From assembly GCA_008632985.1 (NCBI GenBank), contig QPGO01000027.1, positions 62,001 through 126,000 of the forward strand: 64,000 nt of DNA. Reading direction: 5' to 3'. A model generated the notes under the pieces. That model was not told the origin of the DNA. It was given only the letters and a program-made list of their open reading frames with translations, and searched no databases. Shown piece after piece: positions 27,642 to 54,070 of the stretch. Origin of the DNA: Psammoneis japonica. Its lineage: Eukaryota. How positions within the stretch are numbered: the first letter of the stretch is position 1; each line of letters begins with the position of its first letter. The translations under genes were made by a program, and so were the position numbers.

Positions 27642-30550
27642 ATGAAGTTGCTCTTTGCAACATCTCTGTTTCTCACGCGTTCTCTTGCCAGCAGCGATGA
27701 ATGGCACCGTCATTTACGTGTCCGGCACCTCAACGGCGATGACGGCTTTATCATTTATGGCCATGAAAACGGCTGCATTGTGCCCACCTGCCTTGGCAGT
27801 GAGTGTGGGGCCTTCTTTGCTTCGTGCAACTACCCCACTGACTCAAACACCAATACCCATTGGTATCAGGACGATTCCGGGTTGCTCCACTCCGGTTCGG
27901 ATCATAGTAAATGTCTGCAAGCTGCGTGGGGCAATGTAGTCAACGACGGATCGAAAGTGCGCTACGCCTCCTGCGACGCAAACAAGGCAACCCAACAGTT
28001 TGAGCCTGTTACGGCCTCGGGCAACATCAAGCTAAAGATGCGAAGCGACCTTTGCTTAATTGCTCATGGTAATCCACCATCAAGGACGTTTCCCAGATTA
28101 TCCTCAAAGCTTGTGGCGTGGTTGGCAATAGAGCCATCTGGAGGGCTCTGGATTTGCCTACGACACCATCTCCATCGACACAATCGCCGACCACGCCATC
28201 TCCAACGACACCATCACCAACGACACCATCGCCGACCACACCATCTCCAACGACACCGTCACCAACGACGCTATCGCCAACAACGCTATTGCCGACAACG
28301 CTGGCACCAACAACGCCGCCGCAGACAGGTCTCAACGTCGCTGTCTATTACTATCCTTGGTATGGTAATAATTTTCACGGTGGTAAATATCTCCGGTATG
28401 TCACCCTTTCCTCTCCATAGTATGTAACGTGGTTCGACGAAATGCTGTCCTCATTCAACTCTGTTCTCTTGTTTAATAATTGAAATAGACATGATCTTGA
28501 AATGCAACAGAGGCCAGTGCTGGACGAATATGACGACAGCGATCCATCGGTCATCGCCAAGCATCTCGAATGGTCAAAGGACGCAAACATTCGCACGTGG
28601 GTTACTAGTTGGTGGGGTCCAGATTCATACGAAGACAAGACGATTCGCAATGTCATTCTGCCCCACCGCGATATCGGCGACCTTCAGATTGCCGTTCATT
28701 ACGAGTCAACAGGAAGAGGCAGAAACTCCACTGGACAACTGGACGAAGCACTCATCTTGGAGCGTGCTGACTCTGACATTGCGCACCTTTGTCAGCACTA
28801 CTTCTCCCACCCTAATTACATGCGAATTGGCGGTAAGCCCGTTGTTGTCTTCTACTTGAGTCGCTATTATGAGAGTGCACCAGAGCTCCAGCCGGGTCTA
28901 ATGAGAGAAACGTCGAGAGTCATGAAGGAAGCGGCTCGCAATTGTGGAGAAAGTGGGGTGTATCTTATTGGCGATCACGCTTTCAACGACATCCTCTTGC
29001 CTCTTGACTACCTCGATGCAATAACAAACTATGATGTTTATGGAAGTATTCAGGCGTATTCCAACGGGGAGTACTATGCGAAACAAAGTGGCATAGACCA
29101 GTACGTTGCCATGCAAGAAAAATGGCGTACCCACGCACAGCAACAGGGGAAAGGGTTCATTCCTGCTGCCAGTCCAGGCTTTAATGACCGATCCGTACGC
29201 TTGGAGGCTGACCATGTGCCGTTGTCACGCAAGCTGACACCGGATGCAGCGTTCGGTTCGCTCTTTGAAGAGTCTCTGAACAAAGCCGTCGATATGGTGG
29301 ATGCTTCGACCGGAAATATGCTGCTCATCAATTCTTGGAATGAATGGCATGAGGACACTCAGGTAAGTTCTACGTTGCGTCATGTATATCAAAATGCTTG
29401 TGTAATTAAAAATACCAATCGAAACTTTGTTTCTTAATTGCCACCAGATGAACCAGTCATTGGGTTCTCATCCAGCAAGTCTTCTCATCTGACAATGGAT
29501 GTGGAATATGAAGGATATGCCTTTCGTTATCTCGACATGCTACGAAAATTACCATCGGAGTCTCTTCCTCCACCTCCTCCTCCTGAAATTCCTCCTCCTC
29601 CCCCTGAAACCACCCCTCCTTCAGACTGCCCATCAACAATGGCGAACCCCGATGATCTATATCTGCAAGTGAATGACGTGGTTTTGAATAGCTACTGTCG
29701 AGATTTGTATGGGGGGAGCGTGTCTGCAGTGCGAGCTGGTGGATACGACTGGAAATGTCAGAACGCCGACCAATCGATTAGCGACGAGATTTCAATTGCT
29801 GACGTTTGCGCTCGGGAGGTTAGCCCCAACCACGTGGAGGTGCTTCTTGGTGGAACTGAAGATGACTGGGCATGCGTGAATTGGGAAGAGGCTCGTTACA
29901 GTGTCGTGCCTGTTATTGTCGTGGCGAGCGACTTTGTGTCGGATCGGAATGCAATATCTGGGGCCGTTGAATCAGTGACCGCGACGGTGGAGCGAGTTCG
30001 CGAGTGGTACGAAGAAAAGATGACCTCCGGTAAAACGTTCCGTTTAGGTCGTCCCATTCTTCGCCTTTCAAGCCGAACAGGGGAATACTGGAACGAACTT
30101 TCCTGCAAGACTGCCATTCCTCAAGACCGCCCGCAAGAATGCTTGAGCAATGATCCTGAAGCTAAGCGCTACGAATATCTTTACCAAGCATCGGGAGAAG
30201 CACAAGAAACCTCGCTTGGAGTATCACCTCAAGATATTACTGTGCCCATTTTCGTGTTTACGGGACCCGACGCTTCCCCATTCTGGCTTGGCGCGGCTGC
30301 CGCTGGTCAATTCAGTGTGAATCCTCCCAACGTTGCAGTATGCCCAGTGAACAGTGACACTTGTGGATTATACTCGATTGCACACGAAATAGGTCATTCG
30401 TTCAATCTGGCGCACAGCTGTGAGAATCTAGCGGTCCCAGAGCCACAATGCTATAATGGAATCATGGAGAACCCTCCCGATGTCCTCAATGCTGTCCTCT
30501 TTGAGTTTGAGCAGGACATTCTCGACGGTTCTTGTTTCTTCCGTGCCTAG
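27642..30550 (+). CDS. Secreted multidomain protein: ricin-B lectin, Pro/Thr linker, GH99-like glycoside hydrolase, metzincin-like peptidase
   Basis: Signal peptide. Ricin-type C..QxF motifs. (TTPSP)n linker. YYYPWY, WVTSWWG, YFSHPNY.RIGGKPV, PGFND, INSWNEWHEDTQ. HEIGHSFNLAH. Introns ~28396-28489 and 29363-29447, plus indels. Confidence 0.75.
28158..28322 (+). repeat. 15-bp coding tandem repeat encoding TTPSP/TTLSP
   Basis: Units such as acgacaccatctcca and acgacaccatcacca, about 11 copies. Confidence 0.85.
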
Positions 30551-33359
30551 TAGAGGAACAACAATTGCTGTGACCTCTCTACTCGACGGCACCAAGCCAG
30601 GAATGAATGTGTCTACGTATATATTTGCTTATTATATTTAATCTTTATAGTTTACTCGCTTGAGCCAACATGGTGTGGCAGGATTATAGTTGCGTTAATT
30701 ACTCCCGGTAGAGAGACTGAAGCGGTCGACGACTTTGGTGCTGAGAACTTGGAGGAACTTGAACCTGCTCAAGGTGACACATTGCGGGACGGGCGACTTT
30801 ACAGATGCTGGGCCGTCAAACAGTCCTTTTTGAAACAGCGGCAACTTTTTATGTGCACAGTCACACTCACAATTTGTTGGTTGGGGTTTCACCAACAAGA
30901 TGATCATAAACAATCAACCAACACAGTGATTGCTGGTCAATGCTGGTGCCCTTGGGGCAGTCTTTTTTGGCTGGCTGAGGAACAAAACTGTGTGGACAGA
31001 TGTCTCAGACTGGCATCAAGATGCTGTACATGCAATCAAAAACAAGTGCAAGGCTGCTGTTGCCGCCATCACCCCACACCCCCAGGTGCAAGAACACGCT
31101 CTACAGCTGAGCCAAGAACCAACAATGTGTGACACATGTCACCATGACCCACCTCAAGACCCGTTGTTGGGTGTGCAAGTCTCAGAGCCAGCACTTGCAT
31201 CACTCTGGCTGTTGTTGATTTCTTCAACATTGTGGCCACATCTTCCCTTCCATGTGACCACCAGGACAACCTCTGTCACATCCACCCCCACCAAACTGTT
31301 GACCATGTTCTTGTGTGCTCAGATCACAACCACCTCTCTGTTGAACCCCCCCCCCCCCATCTGCCACAATGATGAACCACATGGTCAGGTCCATTGCAGC
31401 CCATCTCTGAATGAAGTCTTTTTTGTGAAAAACTGAGCAAGAGCTTCAACAAGTTGGCTGGGCTCCACCACCATGCAAATGAGACACTTGAAAGAAGTGC
31501 AATGCTTTGGCAAAAAGCAGCAGCAAAATGACTTGTTGCAAGAACAAAAGAGCACACCCTTTCAAAAATCTGGTGGAGAAACTTGCAAATGTGTTTGTTG
31601 CCTTGCCAAGGACCCCAAGTCAACTTGAGATTTTCTGGTCATCAAAAAGTTGATGCACCATGCTGAGGCAGCTGTGCTCAAACTTCTGATGCTGAGCTTT
31701 GGCTTGCAAAGCTGTTGTCAGCAAAAAAGGGCAAAGAGACTTCTGAGGAGCTCTTCTTTGCCATTGCTGTAGTTGGCCCAAGATTAGAAAGCACTGTGGC
31801 TGTCTTCTGCTGTGCCAAAATTGTGAAATCCAAAAATCCCATCCAGGGGCATTGACCAAACATTCTTGGAGCACACAACAAACCTGGCGACATTGCTCTC
31901 ATGGAATTTTGATCCCCCTCAAGTGGCAGCTGGCACACACAGTGCACCTCATCATCACAAATTCACCAGCCATGGCATGGGCATGAAAACAACACAGAAA
32001 GGTGCTCTCTGTCATCAACTTTTTGACAACAAGTTCAAAAATGCACTCTTGCACAAATCACGGTCTTTGGGCTCAAAGTTTGCTGAGTCACCAGCCGTTG
32101 CAGCTGAGCTTTCTCAACAAGCTTTAAAGCTGACCTGCAAAAGCCAAAGCCTCTTCAGCAACCTCAGTGGCTCTCAAATCATGGCCATGATGCTGCCTGT
32201 CATGAACCCACTGCCCACTCCAATTCTTGGACCATTCTTTTAGTCTGAGAGCCACTCCAAGATGATTGACATGACCTTCAATGTCAGTGCAAGCTGCCAT
32301 GCACCACACTTGGCCATCTTGGTGACACCAGCACAGATGATGTTCAAGTGACTGAAGCCCTTCATTCACAACACAGTGCACATGGGATGAACAGCCAAAT
32401 TCATGTTGCATGCCTGCAAAGTTGCTGAGCCCACACAAGGCAGCACAGCTGCCTGCTGTTGTGCAGTTGATGAGTTTGCATCCAACAGAGCAGACCCAAC
32501 AGGCAGAGTGGAAGAAGTTTGTCAAAGATGTGAGAAAAAATCCACAGAAGTCATCATGCATGCATGCAAACCAACCACCAGCACCATGGGCTGATCAACC
32601 CCCCGCACCATTTTGTCTGAAGAACTGCAGCTGTCAGAGACACAGCCCAATGCACTGCCAGCTCTGCTTCCACTTTTGTGTGGCAGAGAACAAATGTTTG
32701 TGCATGCAAGTGTGAGTGCCAGCAGGGCCATGCAAGTGCACATCACATGTGAGCTCCAGTGCCTGCATTTCTGCCACCCGCTGTCTGTGACCCAGCACTC
32801 ATCATGATGTTCTTGGGCATGCTGCTTTTGGCTGTTTTCTGTCTTGTGCCATCACAGTGTGTGTTGCAGCTCTGATGAAGCAAATGCAATCTCTGTTGAT
32901 CTTGCCTTTTGGTGGGTGGAGAGGACAAAGTGTGTGCATCTGGGACACCAATGATCTGGGTCTGACCGTCTGCCACAATCTGGGCATTTCTTGACTTTAA
33001 CACCAGATTTTTGTCAACTTATGAGCCAATTCTCTCCTTGAACACAACATGAGAACTGTGTGAGTTTGTGAGCTTCTAAAACCCAAATTGCTTCTCACTT
33101 TTAAGTGCGATCATTCCTTTCACACAATGCAGACCTGCACCCCAATTGACATTTGGGGTTTCTTGTTCTTTTAACACAAATGTTGCTGCTCATAATCCAC
33201 CCTCCTTTTCTGCCAACTTGTCCCACATTTTGTCTCATTGCTGTGCCATTTTCAAATCCAACTTCCCAATTGCCACACGTTGTTGCATCTGGGCCGCATC
33301 GCAGAATGTTTTTTTTAATTTTCACTTGCCCAGATGTCATTGTTTGTTTCAAATTAAGT

Positions 33360-34493
33360 TCACACACCAGTTTGGTTGGTGGCCATTGCGGCATTTGCTG
33401 CCGCTCCGTTGCCTGCAGCCACCGCCTGCAATGGCAGGTCCTCTCCCATTGGCGCCGCCCATCCTTCCTCTCTCTCCTTTCTTTTTTCCTCTCTTTTGCA
33501 TTTCTTGTTTTCCTCCTGAGACAAGTTTGTCTTCTCTTGCCTTCTCTCCTTGAACCATGCACCGAATCCCTGGTTGTTCTCTCTGTCTTTCACCACCCAC
33601 TGATGCAGATCATTGCACTTCTCGATCCCCTCCTTGCTCCATCCTTGGTTCCTCTTTGCTGATTCCCCCGCCGCCAGCGCTGTGCACTTTGCAGGAGCAG
33701 CATCTTTCACAGTTGGCTTTCTTCTCCTTGCAATGTTTTCTTCCTTTTCCAATTTCTCTGCCGTGTCCTTCACCTTGTTGCAGCAGTTCAAGCACACTGG
33801 CAGAGCAAACGCCTCCGACGAAACCGAAAGCCATTCCTGAAGCATGTCGGTTGTGCTTCCACCAAACTGCACTTGTCCCACCACCGTCGGCACCACAGTT
33901 TCCAAGAACCGTGCACATGTGTCCTTGTCATTTCTTCCCTTTGTCAAGTCTTCGTAAGCCACCAGCGATCCCTCTAAAGCAGCAACTGCACAGACAATGG
34001 CAAAGGAAGAGACACTCATCCTGTTGGACAATCGCCTCCAACACAATCACCGGCACGCACACATCCACTCACCTGTCATTCTCCTCCCAATGTTGTCCTG
34101 CACACTGTTCCTCTTTCGGTTGAGTTTGGTCCTGAACACCTCTTTGCATTCTTCCCAGAACTTCCCCGGTGAAGACGCCATGCTCCTTGGCTCCTGCAGA
34201 ACCAATTTCATGCAATCTCCTCCCACGGCAAGTTCATGATCGAAGATTGTGAACTTGCGACATGGCCAAACACTCTCATTGACAACCTTGGTCAACATCG
34301 ATGCTGTCAATTTCTCGCTCACTGCCGGTGCACGATCCAACACAAGACATCCCTCTGTGGGAGTCACCACCGAACTTGAATCGCCACCTGCATGCTGGAA
34401 TCTGTTCAACTCCCCATGTTCGTTTCTTTGTGCATGCAACAAGGCCGCCACCGCAGGACTCATGGCAACTTCATGTGACACCACACAGATCAA
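33360..34493 (-). pseudogene. Decayed TE-associated hypothetical protein
   Basis: VVPTVVG..SSEAFAL.V(C>Y)LN(CC>YY)..K(C>Y)T..NQGWSKEGIEK(C>Y)NDL(H>Y)..V.KDR resembles an ORF family I associate with diatom DNA transposons. Contains an internal stop. Confidence 0.5.
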
Positions 34494-36044
34494 TCCAACA
34501 ATTGTGTCAGTTTGTCAGCAATTCTTTGTCATGTCCTTTCTCAATCTCACTTGCCGCTGGAAGTTGCACTTCCTCCCTCCGTCGCTCCTGTGAGAACTGC
34601 ATCCTCCATTTTTTTTACCTTCCCAATGGCTTCCTCTTTTTTGGAACTTCCGTCCTTTCCTGTCGCTTTGTGAAAGGCAAGTTGCGAAAAGAATGCACTT
34701 TTGCATGTGATTTTCTCGGTTTTGTTGTTGCTCGCGTGTCCTCTCTCGATTCAAACAGGTCTTTGCATCATTTTTGAGTTCTCATTCCCAACCCCATGTT
34801 TGCACTTCTATCAACATTTCACTGTTTTGAATTGTGTGCCTTTTTCAGCCAATCCAATGCACCAATGAAGATTGCCATGTCATTCAAATCAATGCCAAAC
34901 AACATGTTGTATCTCCTTGTGTCAGTGCATGCATTGCGCTTCCTTGTTGATGCAACATCTGCTTCCTTTGGCACATTGAGTCGTGTCAAACCTCCTGTTT
35001 GTCATCCCTGTCTCAATGGGTCATTCCCTCTGCTTCCCTGACACCACATTTGTCCAGCTGCTCTCTCTGTTGCCCAAATTTTCCAATCCACTTTAATGTC
35101 CACTGAAGTGTGTCATTGTCGCTAAGATGTGGTTGTTGTGAGTCATTCCCGTTGCAGGAACGCGTGTTCCCTCTGTTGCAATCACGTGCCGCCAATTGAT
35201 GATCAAATTGGTCGTTTTGCTGGTGGTGGTGTGGAATCACACGGTGGTGCGGCAAGCTTTGCCTTCTCCGCCAAGGTCATTTGTAACCCCGCTCTCTTTG
35301 CGGCACAAATTCGAAGCCGTTTTAATTTCCTCGACGTTGGTGGTGGTGTTGGCGGTTTTGCGATTGCCTGTCGTCTGCTTGTTCCTGCCTGCAATGCCTG
35401 CAGCATCGAGTTCCACCATCCCCGTCATGATCTTGGCTCTCAGTGGTGTGGTGCCACATGGCACAACAATGCCAGTCGCTTCCCGACCCTGATCAATCAG
35501 GGCTTCCTCTCCGAAGATGATGCTGTTCGTCGGTTGCACCGTCTGAACAACTTAAAGATTTTCTTCAATGGCTGCAATGGGCGAATGCTTTTTTTGACAA
35601 CAACGCGACACAGAACCAACTTGAGGAGATGCTGTCCAACGAGTGTCCTGAAGGTGCTGTTGTCATTTCACTGGACATGATGTTTTGTGTTTGTGCGCAC
35701 AAATGGAGGCATGGAGCATTCTTTGTTCCTGCCCATCCAGACAATCTGTCGTGGGGAGGTGGTGTTGACAGGCACCTGCTTCACAAGTGCACCAAGAAAA
35801 GAGACGATGCCGTGGAGACTGGGCATTCCACCAGGAACGACCTGGGGTCTGACATCAAATGTAAATTCAAGCCTGCCAAAAGTGGGTGACTTTGCAATTT
35901 CACTTTGTTTGTGACGTGACTGTCGTCCATGTGAGCAATGCATTGTCAATTGGCCCTTTACACAAACCCACTTTGCACCTGTGTCAACTTGCTGCTTTGC
36001 CAGTTTTGCATTCCAACACATGCTTGTTCACACGCTTGCTGTGT

Positions 36045-36941
36045 TCACACACTTGCTGTGTCGAAATTGTGGACTGGACATGCCATGTTCCTTCCATCCG
36101 AACTCGTTTTGTTGGGCAAAGCTTGGTGCAACATTCTTGCATCAAAAACAAATGCAGTGCCTGCTTCTCCAACCAGCAATTGTTTTTCCAAACCCAACCC
36201 AACCAATTGTCTTTCGCGCTCCTTCTCATTCAATGTCACCTCACAACTGTCCGGCCACATCTCCACTGCACCATTGTGCTCCGTCATGTCATCAAGGAAC
36301 AGAAACATGGTGAAAATTTTGTTGCCAGGTGACAATTTTGTTTCCACACAATCGCGATGAATTTCCCCCTTTGACCAGAAGTTGGATCTTGAACTTGAAG
36401 CAGGAGCATTTGCTGCTGTGTGCCGGGATGTCTTTCTGCTCAAATCACCCGCCAGGGGAAAGCCAGGAATTAACTCCAACATTTTTTCTGCCAACCCAAT
36501 GCCTTCCGCCTTTTCCTTTTTGTCAATGGTGAACTCACCGACAAAACGGTGTCCTTCCTTTTCTCCCTTCCTGCTTGGTGCCTTGTTTGCAAGCGTTGTC
36601 ATCTTGTTGAGCAGGGGTGGTGGTGTTTTGAATTTTTGCAAGCAGCCTTTTTTTCTTTCCTGGTGCTCTCTTTCTTTGGACCCCACCTTCTTGCTCTTGA
36701 CGACATGAGATTTCATTTTGCCCGGGCATGTCAGTGACTTGCCATGTTTCTGGCATGAAGTTGTCGGCCAACGGGCAAATTTCCGGCATCTGTTCACAGA
36801 ACACTTCCGCGCCATTCTCTGAAGTTGCCTGTTCCACCAAATCAAATGGCACCTGGTCTTTTTCTTTAAGTGGAACAGACCCAATGTAGCGAAAGTCCGC
36901 ACCCATTGCTTTGCAACAAAAACGGCTTTCTTGCCAAACAT
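36045..36941 (-). pseudogene. PhyH-type 2-oxoglutarate/Fe(II) dioxygenase with an N-terminal Cys/His cluster
   Basis: IHRD..FLFLDDMTEHNGAVEMWPDS..GEAGTAFVFDARMLH.A.PN.T..R gives the HxD...H facial triad and distal Arg. Upstream KCSVNRCRKFARWPTTSCQKHG. Confidence 0.7.
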
Positions 36942-37295
36942 GTGTTGCCAACAGCGGTCTGTCTGTTGTGGGCACCACGGGTGTTTTTTTCACAAACAGT
37001 CCCATGTGATGTTTTGACAACGGCAGTCCATCTGTCGGGTGCATCACAGACGTTTTTTTGCCAACAGTTGCATGTGATGTGATCTTCGTTGATCCTGTTT
37101 GCTGAATGATCTCATCAAATTGGTCATCCCAGCTGTCTCAAAAGCACAGAAAACAATTTTGTTGCTCACAATTCTGTTGGTGATGATGTGAGATGTTTTC
37201 ACATCACCACAGCGGCAGACACAAAGCAAAAGCTTCCATCCACCGCACATTCCGCACCACAAACAAACCATTGCTTTTTCAGCACTGCACCCATC

Positions 37296-37410
37296 TGTTG
37301 ACAGAGCAATTTGGTGTCACTTTTCATTGTTAGAACTGTTTGTTAACAAAGTAATTTGGTGTCACTTTTCTGTTGTCAAACATGTTTGTCAACAGAAGAA
37401 TTTGGCATCA
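37296..37410. repeat. ~45-bp tandem repeat, 2.5 copies
   Basis: tgttgacagagcaatttggtgtcacttttc / tgttaacaaagtaatttggtgtcacttttc / tgtcaacagaagaatttggcatca. Confidence 0.8.
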
Positions 37411-38231
37411 GTCATTTGTCAATGCATGTGTGTGGCAATGGACACCTTTGGCACCACTTTTTTGCTTGTGCACTCAACACTGGCCTGTGCAGTGTCATGA
37501 CACAAAGTGCATCTCCCACAGCAAAACACATTCTCCCGAATCTTGTCCAAGTCGCTGATCAACTCATGTTGAGCAACAAACAGATGTTGTTTGGGTGGCT
37601 CCATTTCTTGTCTTCCGCAGCCTTGTCATTCCCTTTGCAGAACAACAACCTCAAAATGATCCCACCCCAAAGAATCACACCAAATCCCTTGCCTGTTAGG
37701 CCACGTTGCCGAAATGGAACCAACAAATCTCTTTTCCGTCCGATGCATCGCACTTCTCTCCCGATGACATTCCACCCGACTCAACCTGCAGTGTTGACCA
37801 ACAATCCATCTGGGCGTTGTCTCCCGCCGGTGCATCTGGCCCCGTTTGGCACAGAAAACAGCCTTGACACCAAATTGAGGCTCTGTCATTCTCCCACACG
37901 TTGGGCAAACAAACGCGGTCATGTTTGTTTGTCACTCAAAAAAAGTGGTTTGACAGATCACTTGATCCGCGGCATTGTGCTGATGATGTTTGATGTGAAA
38001 ATCTTTGTTCGAGAGCAGTGGGAAGAGCAATGCATGCAACCCAAACCACCTTGGTGAATTTGCAAAATGGCCGGTGCACCCAAGCTGCATTAGATTGGCT
38101 TTGAAGGAGGCCGCCCTTCTAGAGCTGGCTCAACGAAAGAAAAAAAAGGCATGCAAAAAAATCATTGATGCTCGCCACTTCCAAAACAAAAAATGCAAAA
38201 GATCTGCAGCGGCACAGGTGGGGATTGCATC

Positions 38232-38657
38232 TTGCGTGCTGCTTCCACTTCCCATCTGTTTCTTGCCTGAAAAATTGTTGTTGATGTTTCCTAGAATGAC
38301 ACCATTGCCAAAGCTCCAACGATTGCAACTGGTGTCGATTCCTGTGTGGAAGGTGCCAAAGACGACGACAATGACACCATGGGCGGAGACGGATGTCATG
38401 GATGACGAACAACAAATTTGGACTGTTGCAGACAGTGAAGAATGTTCATTGGTAAGGGATTTCATCTGTCGTGCTGCTTCCCTTTCCCATCGGTTCCCTG
38501 CCTGACAAAGTGCATGTTGATGTGTCCCAGAATGACAGCAATGATCAAAGTCAAACGATTGCCACCGGTGTCGACTCCATTGAGGTGGCCACCCATGACA
38601 ACAACAACGACTCTACATGGGCGGAGACAGATGACATGGTTGATGAACATCCAATTG
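38232..38657 (+). repeat. Diverged direct repeat, period ~235 bp
   Basis: cgtgctgcttcc..ttcccatc..tgcctga..gttgatgt..agaatgaca..ggtgtcga..catgggcggagac.gatg occurs at ~38232-38420 and ~38467-38657. Confidence 0.8.
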
Positions 38658-39300
38658 ACACTGGCAGATTGTTGGTGATTGGCATGGAAGTTGGTGGTGA
38701 TTTAAATGGAAGTGACAAAGATGCACGCGACAGCATTCGAACTCAACGTCTGGTGGATCTTGGATGTGACGTTTGCACAATTGACAAGAGGATGCGCCAT
38801 GCTTCCTCGCCAAAGCACATGGAGTGTGATGTTCTAAGTTTGCACAGATCAGCAGAATGGAAGAGATTGTCCAAAGAGACAAAGTTCGATCACATTTGCT
38901 TTGACTGCGTGTGTTCAAACCCGGCCTGTCTCTTGGCTTCAGTTCCAAAGGGACCTTTTTTCCAAGATGCACTCAGGGAGCTGCTGCGGTCGCTGATGAC
39001 AATGGGACATTCTTCCTGCCTGCATGCAATCTTGTGTTTTCCGAGTTTTGGATCGAATGGCAGAAACAACATGTGTCGGAAGAGTCCCCAATGCGCTTCT
39101 TGCATGAAGAGCAAGTGTGCGACGAGGTCCCCATCCTTCGAGACGAGGCACAAGCAGACATCTCTGCCTGCGGAAAGTTTTGTACAAGGGAAGAATGCAT
39201 TGAGGATTGTGAGTCAAACACTTTTCTCAAAATTTTGGAGCACACAGTCATTCGGCGAATGAGGGATAAAGCTGGCTCAGTCTCAGCCTTTTTTTTTTGA
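38640..39300 (+). pseudogene. Decayed ORF with a Rossmann/SAM-methyltransferase-like strand pattern
   Basis: RLLVIGM..RD..R..L..LG(C>Y)DV(C>Y)TIDK..H..CD..KFD(H>Y)I(C>Y)FD(C>Y)..FF..L..GTFFLP, with a frameshift near 38980. Confidence 0.4.
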
Positions 39301-41496
39301 TGTCGTTGCACGATGTTTCCGGGAAACGCTTTCAACACACTGGTGCCAACGGCTGTTGTCATCCTCTGGATCCAGACCCAATGCAGCTGCAGTGAGCAAC
39401 TCCACGAAAGCTTGGTCAAAAAATTGGCAGACATGAAGGGGGTCATCAGAACAGTGGGAGGGCACATGGCAGTTGTGAGACAACCTCTCGGTCTTGCTTC
39501 GGCCCATGACTCTTCCACAAATACGTTCTTGATTGAGGATGTCCCCCAACAGGGAGTTGCAATGCATCACAGCTCTGACATGGTGGTGTTGAGTGCCTGT
39601 CATTGCACGAACAATGGGTGGATTCACCTGGCAATGAAGCAGACCATGGAGGACCTCCTTGAGAATGCGGTGACAGTTGGCAACAACAAGGCACCCAAGC
39701 TTGTCTTTCTTGTCTTTCCTGTCCAAATTGGGCATGAATCCGAGTGGATGCCAACAACAGCAGTCGCGGTGTGCGTCCTCTTGAATCATGGCAAGTGAGT
39801 GCATTGCAGGCTCCATCCCGTGAGGATTGACTGCATTGACTCCGGTCTTGTCCAAGCAATTGACAAGGTGAACGTGAAAATCAGATGCCATTTCCTTTGC
39901 ATTGGTGCAACGTTGTTGCCACTCGCCGTCACCCATGTCTTGACTTTGAGTGGACAATCGCCAGTCCCCAGGATGATCCGGGAACGACATCTCAAAACCG
40001 TCAGCCGGGCTAGCGCTGGTTTCCAAATCGCCATCTGTGGGGGGTGGCACACAAGGTGACCAGACATCATTTGGATTAACCTGCAACTTGGAAAGATCAC
40101 GGAACACTGGCTCGGTGAAGAGATCCTGCAAGGTCTCGGTGAAACTGTAAACCGGGAAAGGTGGGGAGCAATGACATTTGGGTCCATCCTTCTGTTGCTG
40201 TGTTGGGTTGTCACATTCTAGCATCACAGTGGCAGTGCGGGGGAGAGGAACATTGGGAAATAACCCCAGGAGTTGCTTCATTGCCACGGCGGCAGTGATG
40301 GGTGGCTTGGACAAATCCAGTCTTTTTTCTGCATGCTCTTAATGCAAAATTCTCATCACTTTGTCGACAAAGTCAATTGCAACACCTGACCGACAACACA
40401 AATGCAGCAAACGCACCATGGGTGCAATGCTGGGTGAGCAGACTGGAGGCACATCGAAATCCTCATCGGGTGCGACATCACGCGGCGGGCCAAGAGGGTT
40501 GTGTTGATCGAGGGAGGAAACAGGATCTTCTGTCGGACCGGAAATTGAGGGGGGGCCACAACTGCCATCGCGACGGTCGGCTCCAATGAACTCGGGAACA
40601 TCCACAGGACTGTCCTCTCCAAGGGCGGACACACCATCATCTGCAAACAAAACAAATTGGCGGACATTTTGGGAGGCTGCACTGGTGGCAGCAAAGTTGG
40701 CAGCTGAGCGCAATCGACCAGAGCGTCTGACGGAGGGTGGGCGCAGTCCACTTCCGGCAGAGGGAGGACAAGCTGGAGAAGAATTGTCCATTGGTGTGGG
40801 AGGAGATGGAGCTGGATTCCAAAGGACTTTGGGGAGGGGAGGAGGGGGTTTGTCGTCGGAGAAACCAAACCCAGCAGGATCATCATGGTTGTCCAGTGAT
40901 TCATCATGGTCGTCATCTGGAGGGGGAAGTGCACGGGCGGCAGTGGAAGATGTGGCATGTGGGCGAAGGGACATTTCCTCTTTTTCACGGCAGGGCAAGC
41001 ACTTCTGTAGATGAAGGGCGATGTTGGAAAAGGGAACATGGCAATGGGGACATTTGGGTTTGTTGGTGTTGGATCCAAGGGAGCCGACGGAGGCAGAATC
41101 CAGAGGATGAGAGGAAAGAGATGTTCTGCCGGATGAAGAAGACAATTGGGTTGCACGGCGCAACTGTGTCAATGGGGGATGGAGACCAGATGCTGCAGTG
41201 CAGTGCCAAGATGGGTGATGCTGCACGTTGTTTTCAGAGTCAAATCCACGTTGTCCGCAATGAGGACAACTAAAAGACTTGGTGGAAATGGCGGAATGGA
41301 GGCAGTTAGTTGCGATGTGCCTGCTGAGGCCACATTCGGAAAAGAAACCGGTTCGTTTGCACCATGGACAAACAAGACCATCAGACGCATGGCCGATGTG
41401 CACAGACGAAGGAGTTGAGAAGAGAATCGAAAGCAAACAGTGGGTGCAGCAACAATCACTTGGGGACATGGTGAGGGTGGAAACACAGAGGTGCAA
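39283..41496 (-). pseudogene. Plavaka-like DNA transposase, decayed and apparently C-terminally truncated
   Basis: N-terminal C2H2 fingers (CPWC..H, CPHC..H). Core reads (C>Y)LDKTG..GMEP..SL..W(H>R)PLGFMPNL..N(C>Y)HRIL..L..LLGD....RICG..R..C, matching the Plavaka transposase pattern. Confidence 0.7.
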
Positions 41497-44372
41497 CGTG
41501 CGGATGGACGGGGAGGAAGGATGGAATGGGCAGGGAGAGAAAATTGAGAAAACAATTGGAGTCTAGATTGACGGACATGGGCAGCGATTTTGATCCAGAA
41601 AGTTGATTGACACACAATCCAGAAATTAAAGTGGAACCAAATGTGCACATGAGGCTTGTCGGATGGGGGGGCAAATGGTCAAATTGAGGAACACAGATGT
41701 TTGTTGTTGAACATTTCAGAAAATCTGGCTTGTCAAATCAGCACGATCTTGGATCAAAGGGAGAAAATGTTGGGTTTCATTTCAAGAAATCTTGACGGCC
41801 AGTGCGACACCTGGATCATTGGTGTCCCAGATGTGGAGGTCACTCCTGTGTGATGCGCTGGAGTTGTTTGTGTGAAAACAAGCCTGGCGGGACAACCCCA
41901 GCTCATGTTGTCACCATCATTGCAACATCTGAGTTGCAGCTGAAGACAAGTGTCACAAAGAACAATCCCACGACACTCCATGACATTGCCTCACACAACT
42001 GCAGACCATCTCTGCAGATTGACAGCAGACAGACAGACCATCAGAAAACAATGGCTGGTGGCTGATCATTCTCGATCAAAAACAGCAAATCTGCTGGAGT
42101 GTCAACAAAACTGGAAACACTGCAAATGGACCACAACAGATGCCACAAGAATTGACCACAAAATTTTCATCCGACAGAAAAATGTCTCTGTGATCTCTTG
42201 GAGGGAGTTTGCACATCACAAACACCTTTCAACCACACGAGCTGCTTTCCATCCCAGCTCGGTGATGCCACGTGTAAAAAACAACCCCCCGTTTTTAACC
42301 AAATGCCCACTTTGATCGACTGACAGCATGCAGATACGAAGCTCAGCACACTTTTGGGGGCTGGAATGGGGGTGAACGTTGGTCACCAACCAATCACTGA
42401 ACATTGACCCTCGCACTTGCCCCCATGCAACAAAGGTGCTCCACGAAAAGTTGGTTCCATTTTCAAACACCCGACACCATGAACAACACATGCTTGCTAC
42501 ATTCTTGCAAGACATCGGTTTGAAGAGTGTGACACTGACAATGCTCATGTCTTGTGCATTTTGTGGCTCTAGCGGGGGTCAAATCTAGCCAATTCTTCCA
42601 AAAACTTTGAGTTGAGTGGGTCACATGGGATTCAAGACACGTGACTTGCTGCACAGTTGTTGAGCCTTTCTCCTTTCTTGACTCCAAGATTGGATGACAA
42701 CATCAACACAAGACCTGTTTCATGGCTGTGTTCTGTTCTCTGATCCATGGCCAGCCTCCTGACAACTGCATTTGACCTCTTTCATGCTGCAAACTGGCAA
42801 AGCAATCCTCGAATGCTCATTTCAAGTCACACTTTTCTGTTTTGAGATTTGACATTTGCAACTTTGCAACAAATCTAGAGTGGGCACGAGCCAGGAAGAA
42901 GCTCTGTTCACTGCTGTTTGTCATTCTGTAGAATGGCAGCACATCAGAACAATGTTGTCAATGTTGTTTGACTGCTTTTTTCTTGAACCATGCACCAACT
43001 TCATTCTGCGCTCTCGCTGCCATCCGCCCGACTCTCCTCCATCCAAGAATGCTTGGCTGAATGTGTTGCAGTTGCTTTGCCAAAGTCTTGCATGTGTTCG
43101 TCTGTTCAATGCCATTGCTCAAATGGGACAATTGACACGACAATGACATTGGATTCGTTCATGTGCTGCTCATGCCAGGAAAGACAAAACAAGAATTGGC
43201 TGTGGCGGCAAGAAAGTTGAGTGAGACAACAAGTGGTGAGCCTTGGACATGTTGACAACACAATTTTGATTTTAAATTTACTTGCCTTTTTATGAACTCG
43301 GACTTCAACACATGGGATTCCGAAAATCCGGCAAATGGCGAGTTGATGCATTGTCTGCATGCAACATGGTGCAACGACAAAGTGAAACAGCATGTTTCAA
43401 TGTTTCTCGCCAAAATGAACATCTCTGAATGAACGGTTGCAGCTGCACATTGACGAGGGTCTGACAGAGCTTCTGTTGCAATGGTCCAAAAAACGACGAA
43501 TGTTCAGACACCTCATCCACCGCGTCAATGTCATCATCGGCTCTGGCGGGTTTTTGACAATTTCTCCGTGTTGTCACCACAAGATGGTCTGCACACTCAT
43601 CTGGAGCATGCTGGCCATGCCAGTTTGAAGCCATTTAAGGCTTGGGTCTCGCAGCTGCAAATTTGCAAAAAATGATTGTTTGTCAGCCCCGATGGCTGCA
43701 CCCAGAAGGCAACAACACAAGTTGAAACAGAGACAAAAGGACAAACAAAGTCTTTCATCTGTTCATCAGATTTCCTTGAGAGAATGAGGGGATCTTCACC
43801 TCTCACTCTCTCCCCAAGATCTTCTGTGTCTGGTTGGAGCATGCTGGAGAGAAAGAAGAGCGGCCGAGAGAGAGGGTGCAGGAGATGTGCTCTCATTTTC
43901 AGGCAGCCTCGAGCAAGCCCAACAAGCAGTGGAAAGAGTTGCAGTTCCTTCTCTGGACTGTCATCTTGCAGATGCAGCTCTCGGATCGCATTCATCACAG
44001 ACATCCAACGGGGCCTGCTGTTGGCTTCAAGCCGCCGGGCTGGCTGCTGGAGTGGCCAGCTGAACGCTTGTCTGCGCCTTGCGCCGGATGGTTCCCTCTC
44101 AGAACGAGAACAACCGCGGCACGAATCATATCAAGAATGCGGCATCAACTCGCGCAACAACGTGGGTGATGCCGGATGCCGATCAAAACGAACAACAGAG
44201 AACAGAATGAGACTACATCATGCATCAGTGCATGGATAGTCTCTAGAGGTGTATTGTGCATCACACGCGACGGTTCCGTGCTGTGTAATATTATTGTGCC
44301 GTGCAAGAAGACAAGAAGCAACCACTGGGTAGGGTTTGCACATTAATCGATACGAAAAGCAAGAACAACGCA

Positions 44373-44837
44373 ATGAGCAGCAGCAGCAGTGACTCTCCAC
44401 AGGAACAGGCTCAAGACGAGAGCAGGCGAGATTCGGCCGCGTCAAAAGCCGATAGTGAGGTGAGCTTTGGAAATGTTCGAGTCATTGAACACAGCATTCA
44501 ACTGGGAGACAATCCAGCCGTCACAGACGGCCTTCCTGTAATGATGGGAGGAAAACGGGGCTCTACAACGGTCTCGGTCGACGAATTTGAGGAAGAAGTA
44601 AATGAGCGCGGTGGGCATCATGCCGCCACCAAAATGAGCGCTGGGGAACGTTTGACGATTATTAGCCACAGTCACAAGCACTCGGGCGGCAGCATCAATG
44701 CGGCTTTCAAAGAAGTGCAGGAAATCAAACATTCCCGGAACGAAAGCAATCATGCAGAGGAAGAAGAAAAGAAGAAGCACAAGAAGCACTTCTCTCTTCC
44801 GTGGCACAAAAAGAAAGGAGCAAAGCATCACAAGTGA
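44373..44837 (+). CDS. Small diatom-type hypothetical protein
   Basis: VSFGNVRVIEHSIQLGDNPAVTDGLPV motif (VxF...LGDNP family) and a basic tail. Confidence 0.7.
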   Translation: MSSSSSDSPQEQAQDESRRDSAASKADSEVSFGNVRVIEHSIQLGDNPAVTDGLPVMMGGKRGSTTVSVDEFEEEVNERGGHHAATKMSAGERLTIISHSHKHSGGSINAAFKEVQEIKHSRNESNHAEEEEKKKHKKHFSLPWHKKKGAKHHK

Positions 44838-45388
44838 TTCTGCATAAATGGTTTTGTAGTTTGGTACTTAATTCTTGTTTCTTTCAGAATTTCAGACGTG
44901 TGCTTGCTTTGTTGTGACGGAAAGGCAGGAATTTCAAGCAAGCCCGAAGCAAGGTGTGTGACGGTAAGGATAAATAGTGTACTGTGTACTGTAGCCTATC
45001 CTTTGTGCTAGGCGCAAGAACTGTTGGCAGCGTATTGTCTTGCTGACAATATATGTATCCAAGATTGCGGCAAAGCATGCTTCCTTTTCTGAAGAAAGGA
45101 CTTTTCGATGGGAGCGTACGCCGAACCTGTTTCCTGCTGGCAATGCAACCTCATGCAAAGTTGAAATGAGTTCATTCCTCCACGAAGGGTCTCTATATTG
45201 GCTGAAGTCACACTATGAACCGAGATTTACCTTTCTAGTAGTACTGTACAATCGAATTTTCACCATCCAAGCTCGTCATTGACGAAAGACTTCCAGCTTG
45301 TTCCTAGCAGAAGAACCTGAAACAATTATCGTTGGATTCATTTTTTATCAAGAAAGCACGGCTGCACTAACTTATAAAGAAGAAACTA

Positions 45389-46177
45389 CTATTGCTTACT
45401 CTTCCATGGCAACACCTTCCCTGTTATCACTAACATCGACGTCTTCATGGAAACCATCACGAAGCCAACGCCTAGCCAGGTTTCTCTTCTCAGGTGCACC
45501 GCACTTTTCTCCATCTTTGAACCAAAGCTTAAAGTAGTAGATGATCCAATCCCACCATTTATCAGGGCATTGCTCAAGGTTACGTCCGGTACCAACCGGA
45601 CGATGAGGGTATGTCGTCGCGAAGGGACCTGCAAGCTGGACAACTCCGCTATTTACAATCGTATGGTGATTGATTTTCCCTCCCGGAAAGTAACAAGACT
45701 TCCAGCCTTGACAGGAACTTTCTCCTGTTTCACACCATCAAAGAAAAAGGATGCTTTAGGATTCGTGTTCAAGAAGATGAAGGCAACATCTTCACTACCC
45801 TCAAGACCACCATCTTCCGTTAGCTCCACATCAACGTGCGGCATGGTGGACGATGAGATGGTTTTCGTCAAAATGTACCGGGCATTGTGTTCATCGCCTA
45901 GTGCGGCCATGAAAAGCTTGATTCAGCTTGTTGACGTGCTGCTTCGATAGGAAAGATGCGCCGTAGTGAGAGCCGTAAAGCTCGTGCTCCCATGAAGCCG
46001 TTTTCGGCGATGATTTCTGATTCTCGTAGATGGTCTCAATGTCATGTTGAGAGAAGAAGTTCTCGTAAACCTTGACCCCGCCAGACGTGTCATCAGAAGA
46101 GCACGTAGGCTCGACGGCAGCTACGCTCCAAGGGCAAGAGCGGCCAGCAGTACAATACCGGTGAGAATAAACCTCAT
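45389..46177 (-). CDS. Secreted protein with a 2OG-Fe(II)-oxygenase-like HxD...H pattern (frameshifted; 3' end uncertain)
   Basis: Signal peptide MRFILTGIVLLAALA. PHVD..VAFIFLNTNP.A.F..VPVKAGSLVTF, then HTIVNSGVVQLAGPF in the next frame. Confidence 0.5.
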
Positions 46178-47113
46178 CGTCGCCTTTCGCCTTTATTCTT
46201 CCTTCTTAACAAGAACAAAGTAACTTGTATCAAAAGAAATGCCGTATTTCGGACGCATGAAACGAAAACGCCTCATTGAATATGCGAGATAATAGCTATA
46301 CGGATCTAAAGAGGTTATCATTTTTTAAAATAATATATGTACATAAATTTCATTAGCCAACCCAACGAATTCCAACCTGAACATCATTATGTAGGGCCCT
46401 ACTGCAACGTTGAGTGGTCATTATTTCAGTATCAGTAAATTACCTATGAATTGTACAAAAAAGCACATATCGCTAAAGTTATAACCATTTATTATATTTC
46501 TACATGGATAACATAATTATCGTCTTCTTGGATCACATTTCCCCGCGCAAATTTTTTGACATGAATGAGTCTCGCTCGGGAGACGCAAAATCTGAGCGGA
46601 AATCCCTGTTTTCCAGGAGACGTGCGAAGAATCGTCCTGGCTCCGCCCGGCACAGTGTCACCAGTCTAGTAGGCCTACCGGTATGCAACTCTGGCCCGGC
46701 CCGGGTTGCATGATGGAGAATGATATGATTATGCCAAGAAAGAAGATACTGCAGCATGATGTTCTTGGACATGCTCAGTCGTGACTCAACCAAGACTCGC
46801 CATCGCAAACGACACTTCGAAGAAATTTCTTTGCCACCACGAGTCGTGACTTTCTCACAACAATCCCCGACAACTCCTCTTCTTTCGCGTTTCAAAATGC
46901 CACCATCTTTTGACGCGTCATGTGTTCGCTTACCGCAAACCGCAAGGCTCATCACAAAAAACGAAAAGCTCATTATTAAAAAAACCGTGTACTACCATCA
47001 ACCAAAAATCATAGAAGTGAGAAGTGAGTGTCGTATACCAATGATAATCAGTCTCAACCGCACATATCCGCCTTCTCACAGAGCTCCATATCTTTCCTTG
47101 CATTCATAGGCAA

Positions 47114-49044
47114 ATGAAGAAATTCTTGCTTGTATTTCTCCTGCTTACATCATGCTCTTGCTCTCTAGCCCGCAAGAATGAGCATGCAAATTTACGTGTG
47201 AGGAATCTAGGCAGCGAGAACCACCACAGCTTTACTATTTATGGCATTGACAATGGTTGTATCGTTCCCACCTGCCTATACAACGCGGTATCCTTCGCCT
47301 CGTGTGATTACCTCGTTGACTCGAATCTCATTTCACATTGGTGGCAGGACAGTGCGGGGTTGATCCATTCCAGCTTGTTTCCGGAAATGTGCCTGCAGGC
47401 CGCCCACGGAAACGTCCTTGTGGACGGATCAAACATGCGTTTCTACCCCTGCAACGGAACCAAGGTCAATCAACAGTTCGAGCCTGTTTCTGCCTCTGGT
47501 ACGATCAAGCTGAAATCACGGGATGACCTTTGCGTCGTCGCCCACGGTTCTCCGCCTGTAAAGGATGTGTCTGAGATTATATTCAAGAAATGCGACATTG
47601 TGGCAACAGAGCTATCTGGCGCACACCGGCGTTGTCCTCCTCACCGCCTCCACCCTCTCCTCCTCCTCCAGACTTAGAAGATGGAAGCTTTTCATTTATG
47701 GCATTGACAACGGTTGCGTTGTTCCTACTTGCTTTTACAACGCTGTTTCCTTCGCCTCGTGTGACTACCCGGTCGACTCGAATCTTATTTCACATTGGCG
47801 GCAAGACAGCACCGGGTTGATCCATTCAGCTTGTTTCCAGAAATGTGCCTGCAGGCCGCCCATGGAAACGTACTTGTGGACGGATCAAACATGCGTTTCT
47901 ACCCATGCGACGAGCACAAGGTCAGTCAACAGTTTGAGCCAGTTTCGTCCTCTGGTACAATCAAGCTGAAATCGCGGAGTGATCTTTGTGTCGTCGCCCA
48001 CGGTTCTCCGCCTGTGAAGGATGTGTCCGAGATTATTTTCAAGAAGTGTAATGTCGTTGGCAATAGAGCTGTATGGAGCGCACCTTCTGTATCTCTGCCG
48101 CCGCCACCACCACCTCCTCCCGACTGCCCGTCAACAATGGCGAATCCAAATGATCTGTACCAGCCTTTGAATGACGTCGTTTTGAATCGCTACTGTCGAG
48201 AATTGTATGGGGAAAGCGTCTCTGCAGTGCGGGCTGGTGGCTATAACTGGAGATGTCAGAATAATGACCAGTCGATTAGCGACGAGGTTTCCATCGCTGA
48301 CGTTTGCGCTCGGCAGTTTAACCACAATTATGTGGAGGTACTTCTTGGTGGAACTGAAGATGACTGGGCATGCGTGAATTGGGAAGAGCTCGTTACAGTG
48401 TCGTGCCTGTTATTGTCGTGGCAAGCGACTTTGTGTCGGATCGGAATGCAATGCTGGGGCCGTTGAATCAGTGACCGCGACGATCGAGCGAGTTCGCGAG
48501 TGGTACGAAACAAGATGTCGTCTGGGAATACGTTCCGTCTAGCTCGTCCTATCCTTCGCCTTTCAAGCCGAACAGGGGAATACTGGAACGAACTTTCCTG
48601 CAAGACTGCCAGTCCTCAAGACCGTCCTGAAGAATGCTTGAGCAGTGACCCAAAAGCTAAGCGCTATGAATATCTCTACCATGCGACGGGGGAGGCGCAA
48701 CTAACGTCACTTGGTGTATCACCTCAAGATATAACCGTGCCCATCTTTGTCTTCACGGGACCCGACGCTTCCCCATTCTGGCTTGGCGCAGCTGCAGCTG
48801 GCCAGTTCAGTGTGAATCCTCCCAACGTTGCAGTATGCCCAGTGAACAGTGACACTTGTGGATTATACTCGATTGCTCATGAAATAGGTCATTCGTTCAA
48901 TCTGAGCACAGTTGTGAGAATCCAGCGGTCCCAGAGCCACAATGCTATAATGGAATCATGGAGAACCCTCCCGATGTCCTCAACGCTGTCCTCTTTGAGT
49001 TTGAGCAAGACATTCTCAACGGTTCTTGTTTCTTCCGTGCCTAG
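47114..49044 (+). CDS. Secreted 2x ricin-B lectin + metzincin-like peptidase (paralog of 27642-30550, lacking GH99; frameshifted)
   Basis: Signal peptide. Two near-identical ricin units (~47230-47625 and ~47688-48085). Peptidase region closely matches 29620-30550, including HEIGHSFNL. Confidence 0.7.
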
Positions 49045-49619
49045 AGGAACAGCAATTGCTGTGACCTCTCTACCCGACGGCACCAAGCCAGGAATGATTG
49101 TGTTTACGTTACTACACAAATTCCTTCTTTATATTGCTTACTTAGATATAACTTGAACTTTTTAGTTTACACGCTTGAACCGACATGGTGTGGCAGGATA
49201 TAGTCGCTATAACTTCTACCGGTAGGGGAGACTGAAGCGGACGACGGCTTTGGTACTGAGAACTTTGGAGGAACTTGAACTTTTTCAAGGCGACACATGG
49301 CGGGTTGACGGGCGACGTTACAGATGCAGGGGCAATGGTGCTTTTTTATCGGTTACCTGATTGACGAAAACGACAAGATAAATCAGAGAGTTGAATTGGT
49401 TTCCTGGATCGGAAGAGATCGTTTTAAGTCTTGATATATGATAATTCCGTGACTTCTTGAAAAGCAGTGTGCATCGTGGTCAGGGATAGCTTAAGATGTG
49501 TGGCATCCTCATCGTCTGAAGCGTAAGATCTCGGTGCATTTTTTGCATATTACTCTAGTAGGTACATACATTGAAATCAAAATTTAAGCATCTATAAAGA
49601 AACCCCTCACGATCGGGTT

Positions 49620-53785: not shown

Positions 53786-54070
53786 CGGGAGGGTTATCGG
53801 GATCGAAGTTATGATAAGAGTCAGCACCAAGAAGGTGAGTGGAGGATGCCCCGCTGGATGAGGGTGGGCGTGAAGAACACATCATGCGCGTGCTTCACGC
53901 GTGTTCTTCTGTCATGGTGTATGTTCGTCTGCGACACGTCGTTGAAGTGCGTGCTGTCTGCGCCGCAACTGCATTCCGTGAGATCATCACGCACGCAAGA
54001 GCGAGCATGCCGTTGTCGCTGTTGAAGCCGATATCATTTTCTTGACAGCGCGAACTTTGTTATTGCCACC

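Follow-up and report, generated by a model that had tools for sequence, protein, structure and literature searches.

A non-autonomous Plavaka-like transposon of Psammoneis japonica with a PhyH-clade dioxygenase and methyltransferase-like genes as putative anti-silencing cargo

In a stretch of 64,000 nucleotides from Psammoneis japonica (contig QPGO01000027.1, positions 62,001 to 126,000; hereafter the window), whose flanking genes indicate a gene-dense, compact and intron-bearing eukaryotic host, an earlier note had drawn attention to four open reading frames (ORFs) lying close together: a transposable-element-associated ORF, a 2-oxoglutarate (2OG) dioxygenase, a methyltransferase-like ORF and a transposase. 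This raises the question whether they belong to a single mobile element, what the enzymes carried by it act on and whether these are linked to the striking loss of the dinucleotide TpA from this DNA. All four ORFs were found where the note had placed them, with the qualification that two methyltransferase-like candidates are present (35126-35889 and 38531-39262, both on the plus strand), between which it did not distinguish. The ORFs are enclosed by an 8,897-bp DNA transposon at 32937-41833 with five genes inside, which by its sequence features belongs to a non-autonomous, Plavaka-like (CMCT/EnSpm clade) cut-and-paste family. Its cargo is read here, with about even confidence, as a chromatin-directed anti-silencing kit.

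The termini, missed previously, were located by a repeat search of the whole window as an inverted pair (32937-32961 and 41809-41833), the outer 20 bases of which form perfect terminal inverted repeats (TIRs) with TG on both sides as putative target site duplication (TSD; Table 1). Weaker pairing of the element ends extends for about 90 bases past the perfect TIR. When the 13-kb TA-poor block was resampled 100 times with matched dinucleotide content, exact inverted repeats never exceeded 17 bp. For the 2-bp flanks, seen at one insertion only, a match is expected by chance at about 7% in the local composition. Inside the element, the repeat search gave no second comparable TIR pair, a single pair surrounding all five genes.

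Contigs of the public sequencing run X1, which may be the source sample, were aligned at 80% identity and summed to a depth that is no true copy number (runs X2 and X3 gave no cover within the element). By this measure, all 16 bins inside the element (33238-41781) show a depth of 1,388-5,106, compared to 55-119 in nine outer bins (29500-32703 and 43918-45500), corresponding to a step of at least 24-fold between the element ends, for which tens of related copies are the simplest reading. The single-copy flank contigs of X1 end at 32962 and restart at 41808, each no more than 6 nt from the inner border of a perfect TIR; this overlap with the TIRs is the expected pattern, as unique sequence meets the repeat there. 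Joins of 37631 to 40428 and of 38111 to 40503 in further contigs are as co-linear deletion copies would give them, and only one of the six loose contig ends among those listed lies inside the element. At 37405, other contigs jump back by 120 nt, hence the unit number of the 45-bp repeat upstream of the dioxygenase gene varies between copies.

The earlier note had suggested an analogue of fungal KDZ/Plavaka-type elements, of which the Plavaka part stands. The window transposase itself gave no Pfam match up to E 10, but aligns with residues 450-648 of a 1,294-aa ORF in the marine metagenome locus L015 (E 8e-18), and the core of the latter in turn matches Pfam Plavaka (PF18759) as sole family, at E 0.0033 and 17.1 bits, below the cut-off of 26.3. 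In the cited parts of a recent classification, Plavaka is grouped with EnSpm in the CMCT clade, separate from KDZ, and CA..TG termini, TSDs of 2-3 bp as well as an H(3-4)H motif and a catalytic Glu are given for this clade (Kojima, 2025; PMC12730594). Accordingly, the element has CA..TG termini with TIRs beginning with CATC and a TSD of 2 bp, with the caveat that the TG of the TSD, and likewise the terminal CA and TG, could be mutated TA. In both the window and L015 transposases, S-x-x-C is present where the C(2)C of Plavaka/CMCT follows the second Asp. A KDZ element, with the 8-bp TSD of Zisupton and a KDZ-type transposase, was rejected, the flanks sharing 2 bp only and the L015 relative matching Plavaka.

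The H(3-4)H motif and the catalytic Glu can be seen by eye in the L015 protein. Beyond residue 648 of the latter, however, three later segments of a frameshift-tolerant alignment scored within shuffles, and judged from the alignment the window transposase is cut off before both of these features, making this copy non-autonomous. An extension of the gene across frameshifts as far as an 'LNAF'-like stretch near 39190, suggested by eye, was dropped, as its alignment was no better than shuffles. The junction of the truncated gene with ORF5 is bridged by one X1 contig (39252 to 39340), while 12 contigs cover 39268, and is probably common to other copies. Neither the transposase nor the dioxygenase alignment had a match among viral contigs. 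Homolog searches with a word index returned nothing for dioxygenase, transposase and ORF5, but these are weak blanks, since HMMER gave 103 dioxygenase relatives.

Table 1. Features of the transposon, in window coordinates.
Feature	Position	Strand	Remarks
Left TSD copy (TG, 2 bp)	32935..32936		TG outside both ends
Left TIR, 20 bp perfect	32937..32956	+	CATCTGGGACACCAATGATC; imperfect pairing on to ~33029
ORF1, transposon accessory protein	33360..34463	-	338 aa after removing a predicted 87-nt GT-AG intron (34072-33986)
Class I S-adenosylmethionine (SAM) methyltransferase, probably DOT1-like	35126..35889	+	2-nt frameshift near 35589; start codon not identified
Zinc-knuckle PhyH-clade Fe(II)/2OG dioxygenase	36045..36815	-	256 aa, uninterrupted; HxD...H and distal Arg; tail-to-tail with the DOT1-like gene
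Short internal repeats	36940..37405		upstream of the dioxygenase; 56-nt pair 69 nt apart; 45-bp unit x2.4 at 37296-37405
ORF4/5, one probable spliced gene	37347..39262	+	N-terminal region, acidic duplication, C-terminal Rossmann/methyltransferase-like domain; at least one frameshift
Plavaka-like (CMCT) transposase	39283..41469	-	N-terminal C2H2-like zinc fingers; first and second Asp regions present; TAA stop at 40341-40339
Right TIR, 20 bp	41814..41833	-	pairs with left TIR
Right TSD copy (TG, 2 bp)	41834..41835		equals left copy

The dioxygenase, of which the window holds a single copy, matches Pfam PhyH (PF05721) at E 2.4e-7 (31.7-32.4 bits, above the cut-off of 22) and has an Arg within one residue of the 2OG-binding place; its profile score of 5e-65 is circular, the protein itself being part of that profile. 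The 103 relatives were obtained at E ≤ 0.001 in a full HMMER search and include a few long repeat proteins that are probably spurious. In an alignment of 49 relatives and the window protein, the iron triad of His, Asp and His is invariant in 50 of 50, and the distal, 2OG-binding Arg is kept in at least 90% of the 33 rows of a second alignment, the catalytic residues being conserved over about 100 clusters at less than 50% identity. PhyH was matched by 49 of the 50 aligned members, the TET/JBP model by none at E 0.01, and ParB was not among the nine Pfam families matched by them. On this basis, the enzyme is of the PhyH type and not TET/JBP, so that the suggestion of one transposon with a PhyH-type dioxygenase and methyltransferase-like cargo is borne out together with the TIRs and the TSD. 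Of the 63 members of 200-350 aa, which have a median net charge of +12, 34 bear an N-terminal Cys-Cys-Cys-His knuckle. Ten relative clusters that were looked up stem from metagenome-type sources and are unnamed or 'hypothetical', with one PhyH-type name. The window protein could not be placed in a quickly built tree of 68 rows, which is not used as evidence here.

The fold of the window dioxygenase is predicted from the model of a relative, P0024, with a predicted local distance difference test score (pLDDT) of 90. This model best matches the PhyH clade, at Z 14-17 and a root-mean-square deviation (rmsd) of about 3 Å over 175-190 residues, for example EvdMO1 (Z 17.1, rmsd 2.8 Å over 177 residues) and PHYHD1 (Z 14.6), which we take to be the human protein of structure 2OPW, whereas FTO (Z 11.5), AlkB (Z 10.8) and NgTET1 (Z 10.5) are lower. 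A PhyH-fold chain of the trypanosome RNA-editing complex (8fnc) is also among the neighbors (Z 14.3). With its predicted fold and the HxD...H triad, the enzyme resembles the PhyH/PHYHD1 family (AviO1, EvdMO1, SnoK, KanJ and PHYHD1), but differs from its known members, which mostly act on small molecules or free nucleosides, in the basic N-terminal zinc knuckle and the location on a transposon.

In a metagenome scan, 22 of 99 pattern matches were confirmed as loci of the dioxygenase family, several of them representing the same element, and five of the 22 extend for at least 5 kb on one side. In L015, 8 kb contain the dioxygenase together with a homolog of ORF1 (E 2e-9) and a full-length Plavaka-like transposase. 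In L002, 33-bp inverted arms enclose the dioxygenase, a SET gene placed tail-to-tail to it (the SET match being scored on the near-identical copy L001) and a MULE (Mutator-like element) transposase (E 6e-13), and in the short locus L007 a SET gene lies 500 bp downstream of the dioxygenase. Large ORFs of L005 and L017, 47% identical to each other, look by eye like CMCT transposases and have no Pfam match. Hence, transposases and SET genes make up the identified neighbors in the longer loci, co-occurrence of the dioxygenase with transposases holds elsewhere (L015 and L002), and the dioxygenase is not an ordinary single-copy metabolic gene; the co-occurrence does not extend to the DOT1-like gene, ORF4 and ORF5, and the gene order of L015 differs from that of the window.

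Several other features of these loci were observed. Large ORFs beside the dioxygenase (L005:4965-8057, L004:1-1227, L017:2099-4237 and L007:3064-3588) bear a resemblance by eye to TET/JBP-like 2OG domains, these ORFs having no Pfam match and a single PHROG match (L007, E 3e-4). L005 (10976-12097), L004 (4485-5606) and L019 (406-1527) each have an ORF of 374 aa that stands tail-to-tail with the PhyH gene and matches no family; given its HxD...H pattern, it may be a second 2OG dioxygenase. Just outside the TIR-bounded MULE, L002 has a second, Mutator-like transposase (1108-3501; PF20700, E 2e-24).

For the gene at 35126-35889, the motif I for SAM binding, D-x-G-G-G-x-G, can be read directly. Generic profiles were matched at E 0.005-0.03 (Pfam Methyltransf_2/23 at 0.02, CbiT at 0.005), and the ESM Atlas gave scores of 0.89-0.92, with DOT1 named in five of the ten listed clusters (0.89-0.90), one of them from an oomycete. 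The match to the H3K79 methyltransferase 9ne1 of the PDB is weak (E 0.53), and the downstream motifs presumably resemble those of DOT1, as judged by eye. These comparisons make a DOT1-like methyltransferase probable. The 2-nt insertion causing its frameshift is missing from five X1 contigs, about half of the depth there. Compared to DOT1 proper (PF08123), with which it shares the class I motif, the Atlas neighbors and the weak H3K79 match, the gene is short, stand-alone, transposon-borne and frameshifted, and lacks a Pfam DOT1 match. At 35236-35804, two X1 contigs are 80-82% identical to the gene and continue into other sequence, which suggests diverged paralogs in other elements. An apparent match of its C-terminal half to short ORFs of L004, L005 and L019 (E 0.002-0.006) was discarded as reflecting Cys/His composition.

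The second candidate belongs to ORF4/5, which shows an acidic 235-bp duplication of exon plus intron and predicted introns at 38218-38294 and 38452-38530. Its C-terminal domain (about 38640-39050) scored 0.83-0.86 against methyltransferase clusters of the ESM Atlas, a lead only, while all other sequence and profile searches were blank and a single-sequence fold of ORF5 (pLDDT 46) had no structural match. By eye, an Asn-Pro-x-Cys stretch follows the fourth predicted strand of ORF5, which we assume could be a mutated NPPY-type motif. SET and PF01555 were not matched by the element ORFs scanned, with ORF5 being heavily mutated and weakly methyltransferase-like. Searches by tblastn with the DOT1-like half against plasmids and with ORF5 against phages gave no match. 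The predicted intron of ORF1 contains its only internal stop, and this protein has no Pfam match.

Under the reading favored here, the element copy would be moved in trans by an intact relative. The DOT1-like enzyme would methylate a histone or another chromatin protein, and the basic zinc-knuckle dioxygenase would be brought to chromatin, oxidizing a methylated or other residue there; the latter gene would have been shuffled among DNA transposons beside a protein methyltransferase, either SET or DOT1-like. After insertion, the host would have rewritten most TpA to CpA or TpG, with part of the CpG decaying. An anti-silencing role is proposed because the dioxygenase is basic, bears a zinc knuckle and lies near SET or DOT1-like genes in transposons.

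Several results weigh against this. The structural neighbors of the P0024 model at Z 14-17 are almost all small-molecule enzymes, and neither half of the frameshifted methyltransferase gene matches Pfam DOT1 (PF08123). Homologs of the DOT1-like gene, ORF4 and ORF5 occur in none of the 22 loci, so that the five-gene order is seen as a whole only in this window; moreover, the L005 and L017 proteins match L015 at E 0.084 only, and L006 has no transposase in 10 kb upstream. The substrates of all cargo enzymes are putative. As to the element being one unit, its X1 depth varies about 3.7-fold, contig depth is no true copy number and 566 rows of loose ends stand beyond those listed. In addition, PHYHD1 and related PF05721 enzymes are reported, in the parts of the study cited here, to act as demethylases of free 2'-O-methyl nucleosides while leaving nucleotides and RNA untouched, the active members coming from plants, fungi and bacteria as well as from a giant virus (PMC12709175). 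A nucleic acid polymer should thus not be assumed as substrate. Removal of the 3'-terminal 2'-O-methyl group from small RNAs, another activity considered, was rejected, as according to the same excerpts PHYHD1 and plant PHYH-like enzymes do not catalyze it (PMC12709175).

The nearest analogue is not the fungal TET/JBP association invoked in the earlier note but the red-algal Plavaka cassette, while the PhyH-type dioxygenase indeed sets the element apart from the fungal case. In the sections of the preprint used here, giant Plavaka elements of Bostrychia moritziana bear accessory genes PAG1-3, of which PAG2 combines an N6-adenine methylase with SET and PAG3 combines ParB with a putative 2OG oxygenase having 2OPW as best HHpred match; PAG genes move between transposon families, Mutator included, and copies are mostly degenerate (bioRxiv 10.1101/2025.02.11.637652). 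Shared with this system, as far as these sections describe it, are the Plavaka-lineage transposase, a set of accessory genes with a putative 2OG oxygenase and a methyltransferase among them, tandem repeats beside the oxygenase, cargo moving across families and degenerate copies. Unlike PAG3, the oxygenase in the window has a Cys/His zinc knuckle and no ParB domain, and unlike PAG2, the methyltransferase is probably DOT1-like instead of an N6-adenine methylase with SET; the element is also non-autonomous and only 8.9 kb compared to 17-19 kb, PAG1-3 being compared by description only. The TET+ PlavakaB elements of Agaricomycetes, in the excerpted account, share CA..TG termini, a TSD of 2-3 bp, dioxygenase cargo and a proposed anti-silencing function, and PlavakaB-1_GyCo opens with the same seven bases as the TIR, CATCTGG (Kojima, 2025; PMC12730594). 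They differ from the window element, which has a PhyH-clade dioxygenase, extra methyltransferase-like genes and a TA-erasing decay in the reverse direction of repeat-induced point mutation. In a literature search thin on subscription papers and Repbase Reports, none of the papers listed dealt with a Plavaka of diatoms bearing cargo of this kind, with the dioxygenase family described here or with a transposon-borne DOT1. While the concept has been published for red algae and fungi, the present domain combination appears to be unpublished.

Alternatively, the cargo might mark or unmark the element's own DNA, the dioxygenase oxidizing a base (5-methylcytosine, thymine or N6-methyladenine) like fungal TET/JBP and ORF5 being an amino-methyltransferase, both unrelated to the loss of TpA. 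The basic N-terminus with its zinc knuckle would suit such a role, as would the short variable tandem repeats just upstream of the dioxygenase, which recall those beside PAG3, the PhyH-fold chain of the RNA-editing complex and, presumably, the NPPY-like stretch seen by eye in ORF5. A DNA methyltransferase has also been described as accessory gene of a brown-algal transposon, in the part of the paper considered (PMC12477816). This is nevertheless unlikely, as NgTET1, AlkB and FTO score well under the PhyH clade, no aligned member matches TET/JBP, the evidence for ORF5 is weak and PHYHD1 is inactive on nucleotides or RNA, according to the cited extracts (PMC12709175). The base-modification module suggested before would thus be hypothetical: the dioxygenase has small-molecule enzymes as structural neighbors, and DOT1, which the better supported of the two methyltransferases resembles, methylates protein lysines.

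Similarly improbable is that the enzymes are mere passengers with no role in silencing, captured by a giant non-autonomous element, for example a nucleoside-salvage or small-molecule hydroxylase. This would be in line with the structural neighbors, with PF05721 members demethylating free 2'-O-methyl nucleosides (PMC12709175, in part) and with the giant elements of Ectocarpus, which in the cited sections are often non-autonomous and bear many accessory genes of unknown function, among them one ParB-DNA methyltransferase (PMC12477816). However, the catalytic residues are conserved across the roughly 100 divergent clusters, the longer loci adjoin transposases and SET genes instead of metabolic genes, and a zinc knuckle with positive charge is ill-suited to a salvage enzyme.

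The composition also bears on whether the cargo is linked to the loss of TpA. Inside the element, observed/expected ratios are 0.083 for TpA and 0.54 for CpG, and all six ORF intervals measured range between 0.03 and 0.09 and between 0.52 and 0.70, respectively, in agreement with the similar mutational state noted before. Host genes show 0.56 and 1.04, and those on either side of the TA-poor block (31000-44100) are not depleted. In the coding frames of six ORF pieces, only two Tyr remain in 1,864 codons and Cys and His are frequent, as expected from TAY codons turning into TGY or CAY; with nearly all tyrosine codons removed, this copy is very probably dead. Since TpA transitions cannot create stop codons, open frames were not counted as proof of selection. 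In the left flank, TpA is equally low (0.047) but CpG is almost wholly lost (0.07), identifying it as an older, separate relic, and three further blocks of the window (about 1-6000, 52500-53900 and 62500-64000) are as depleted. These blocks have sharp edges, are mostly CpG-poor too and contain long ORFs without Pfam match.

An origin of the TpA to CpA/TpG signature in the cargo itself, for instance by oxidizing T or methylating A in TpA, is thus very improbable. The strong depletion of the element and of four of the 22 related loci (0.17-0.31; L004, L005, L014 and L019) would agree with it, but the single-copy left flank and the three other blocks are as depleted with only one dioxygenase in the window, L002, L015, L017 and L007 carry the dioxygenase family at TpA of 0.62-0.70, and the process wrecks the cargo's own codons. 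Moreover, comparing the window with X1 over single-copy flanks (30577-32962 and 43549-44050), seven of the 11 listed differences are TpA transitions, in both directions; TA erasure hence looks recent and polymorphic and also reaches DNA free of the cargo. Consequently, the loss is not tied to the cargo, as cargo-free flanks are hit and other dioxygenase-bearing elements spared, and the link proposed earlier is not supported. Two of the TpA differences, at 30620-30622, sit just outside the depleted block. In the four depleted marine metagenome loci, the loss is accompanied by CA/TG excess, so that the signature occurs in mobile DNA of other organisms, too. The same spectrum, TpA to TpG/CpA transitions confined to integrated viral DNA with host genes spared, is described for Bigelowiella natans, where a host adenosine deaminase is proposed without proof (bioRxiv 10.64898/2026.01.13.699255, in the sections cited). 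By analogy, a comparable host defence may act on the window DNA, where, in contrast to the Bigelowiella case as described in these sections, transposons are targeted, TpA falls much lower (0.08 versus 0.45) and CpG is lost alongside.

Finally, the caution that the ORFs might be unrelated nested insertions lying together by chance is now hardly tenable: although the depth varies along the element, two DOT1-like contigs run into other sequence and giant elements of brown algae often contain fixed nested insertions (PMC12477816, in the part cited), a single TIR pair surrounds all five genes, the depth jumps at least 24-fold between its ends, the CpG state is uniform, ORF1, transposase and dioxygenase are found together again in L015, and loose ends inside the element are rare among those listed.

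Around the element, some further features were observed. The left-hand relic (31000-32936; TpA 0.05, CpG 0.07), into which the element inserted, is single-copy and by eye possibly a retroelement fragment, with no Pfam match of note. To the right, a second many-copy repeat (42361-43549) has a summed depth of about 1,300-2,900 and several loose ends, is separate from the element and matches no Pfam family. The TA-poor block is flanked by duplicated host genes (27573-30550 and 47048-49153, about 18.5 kb apart) that are 85-98% identical in their shared parts, encode ricin-type lectin domains, a GH99-like hydrolase and a reprolysin-like peptidase and are not TA-depleted. Likewise not TA-depleted is an inverted duplication of about 800 bp (15976-16784 and 23831-24653, 7-8 kb apart, 71-96% alike). 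Rfam gave no match within 30000-45000, PADLOC found 0 of 8 and PHROGs yielded no informative match for window ORFs.

Returning to the chromatin-directed reading of the cargo, a wider and more tentative proposal is that the transposon-specific PhyH-fold branch, with about 100 clusters and its zinc knuckle, might represent a new class of chromatin enzymes outside TET/JBP, AlkB and JmjC, which would add or remove a DNA or histone mark and be swapped among Plavaka, MULE and other backbones of marine protists. Combined with a SET or DOT1-like writer, it might constitute a writer/eraser module against silencing, in an arms race with a TpA-erasing defence of the host. In the excerpted text of a survey on chromatin evolution, chromatin-domain fusions with transposons are reported, with cells and giant viruses as the only settings in which DOT1 is mentioned (10.1101/2021.11.30.470311).

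Epigenetic enzymes of their own are known from few transposons, and among those of algae, none was biochemically tested in the papers compared. With a complete element including its ends, and a dioxygenase family with intact, short members that should be easy to express (P0024, L015:7674-8435 and L002:6241-6990), a direct test of the action of a PhyH-fold enzyme on chromatin becomes possible. Separating the cargo from the TA-erasing mutation directs the search for its mechanism to host genes. If a PhyH-fold enzyme indeed acts on chromatin, epigenetic erasers or modifiers would gain a new class. Unusual, too, would be its DOT1-like partner as an H3K79-type writer carried by a transposon, this mark being described as repressive in brown algae, where DOT1 is expanded (PMC13076208, in the part cited).

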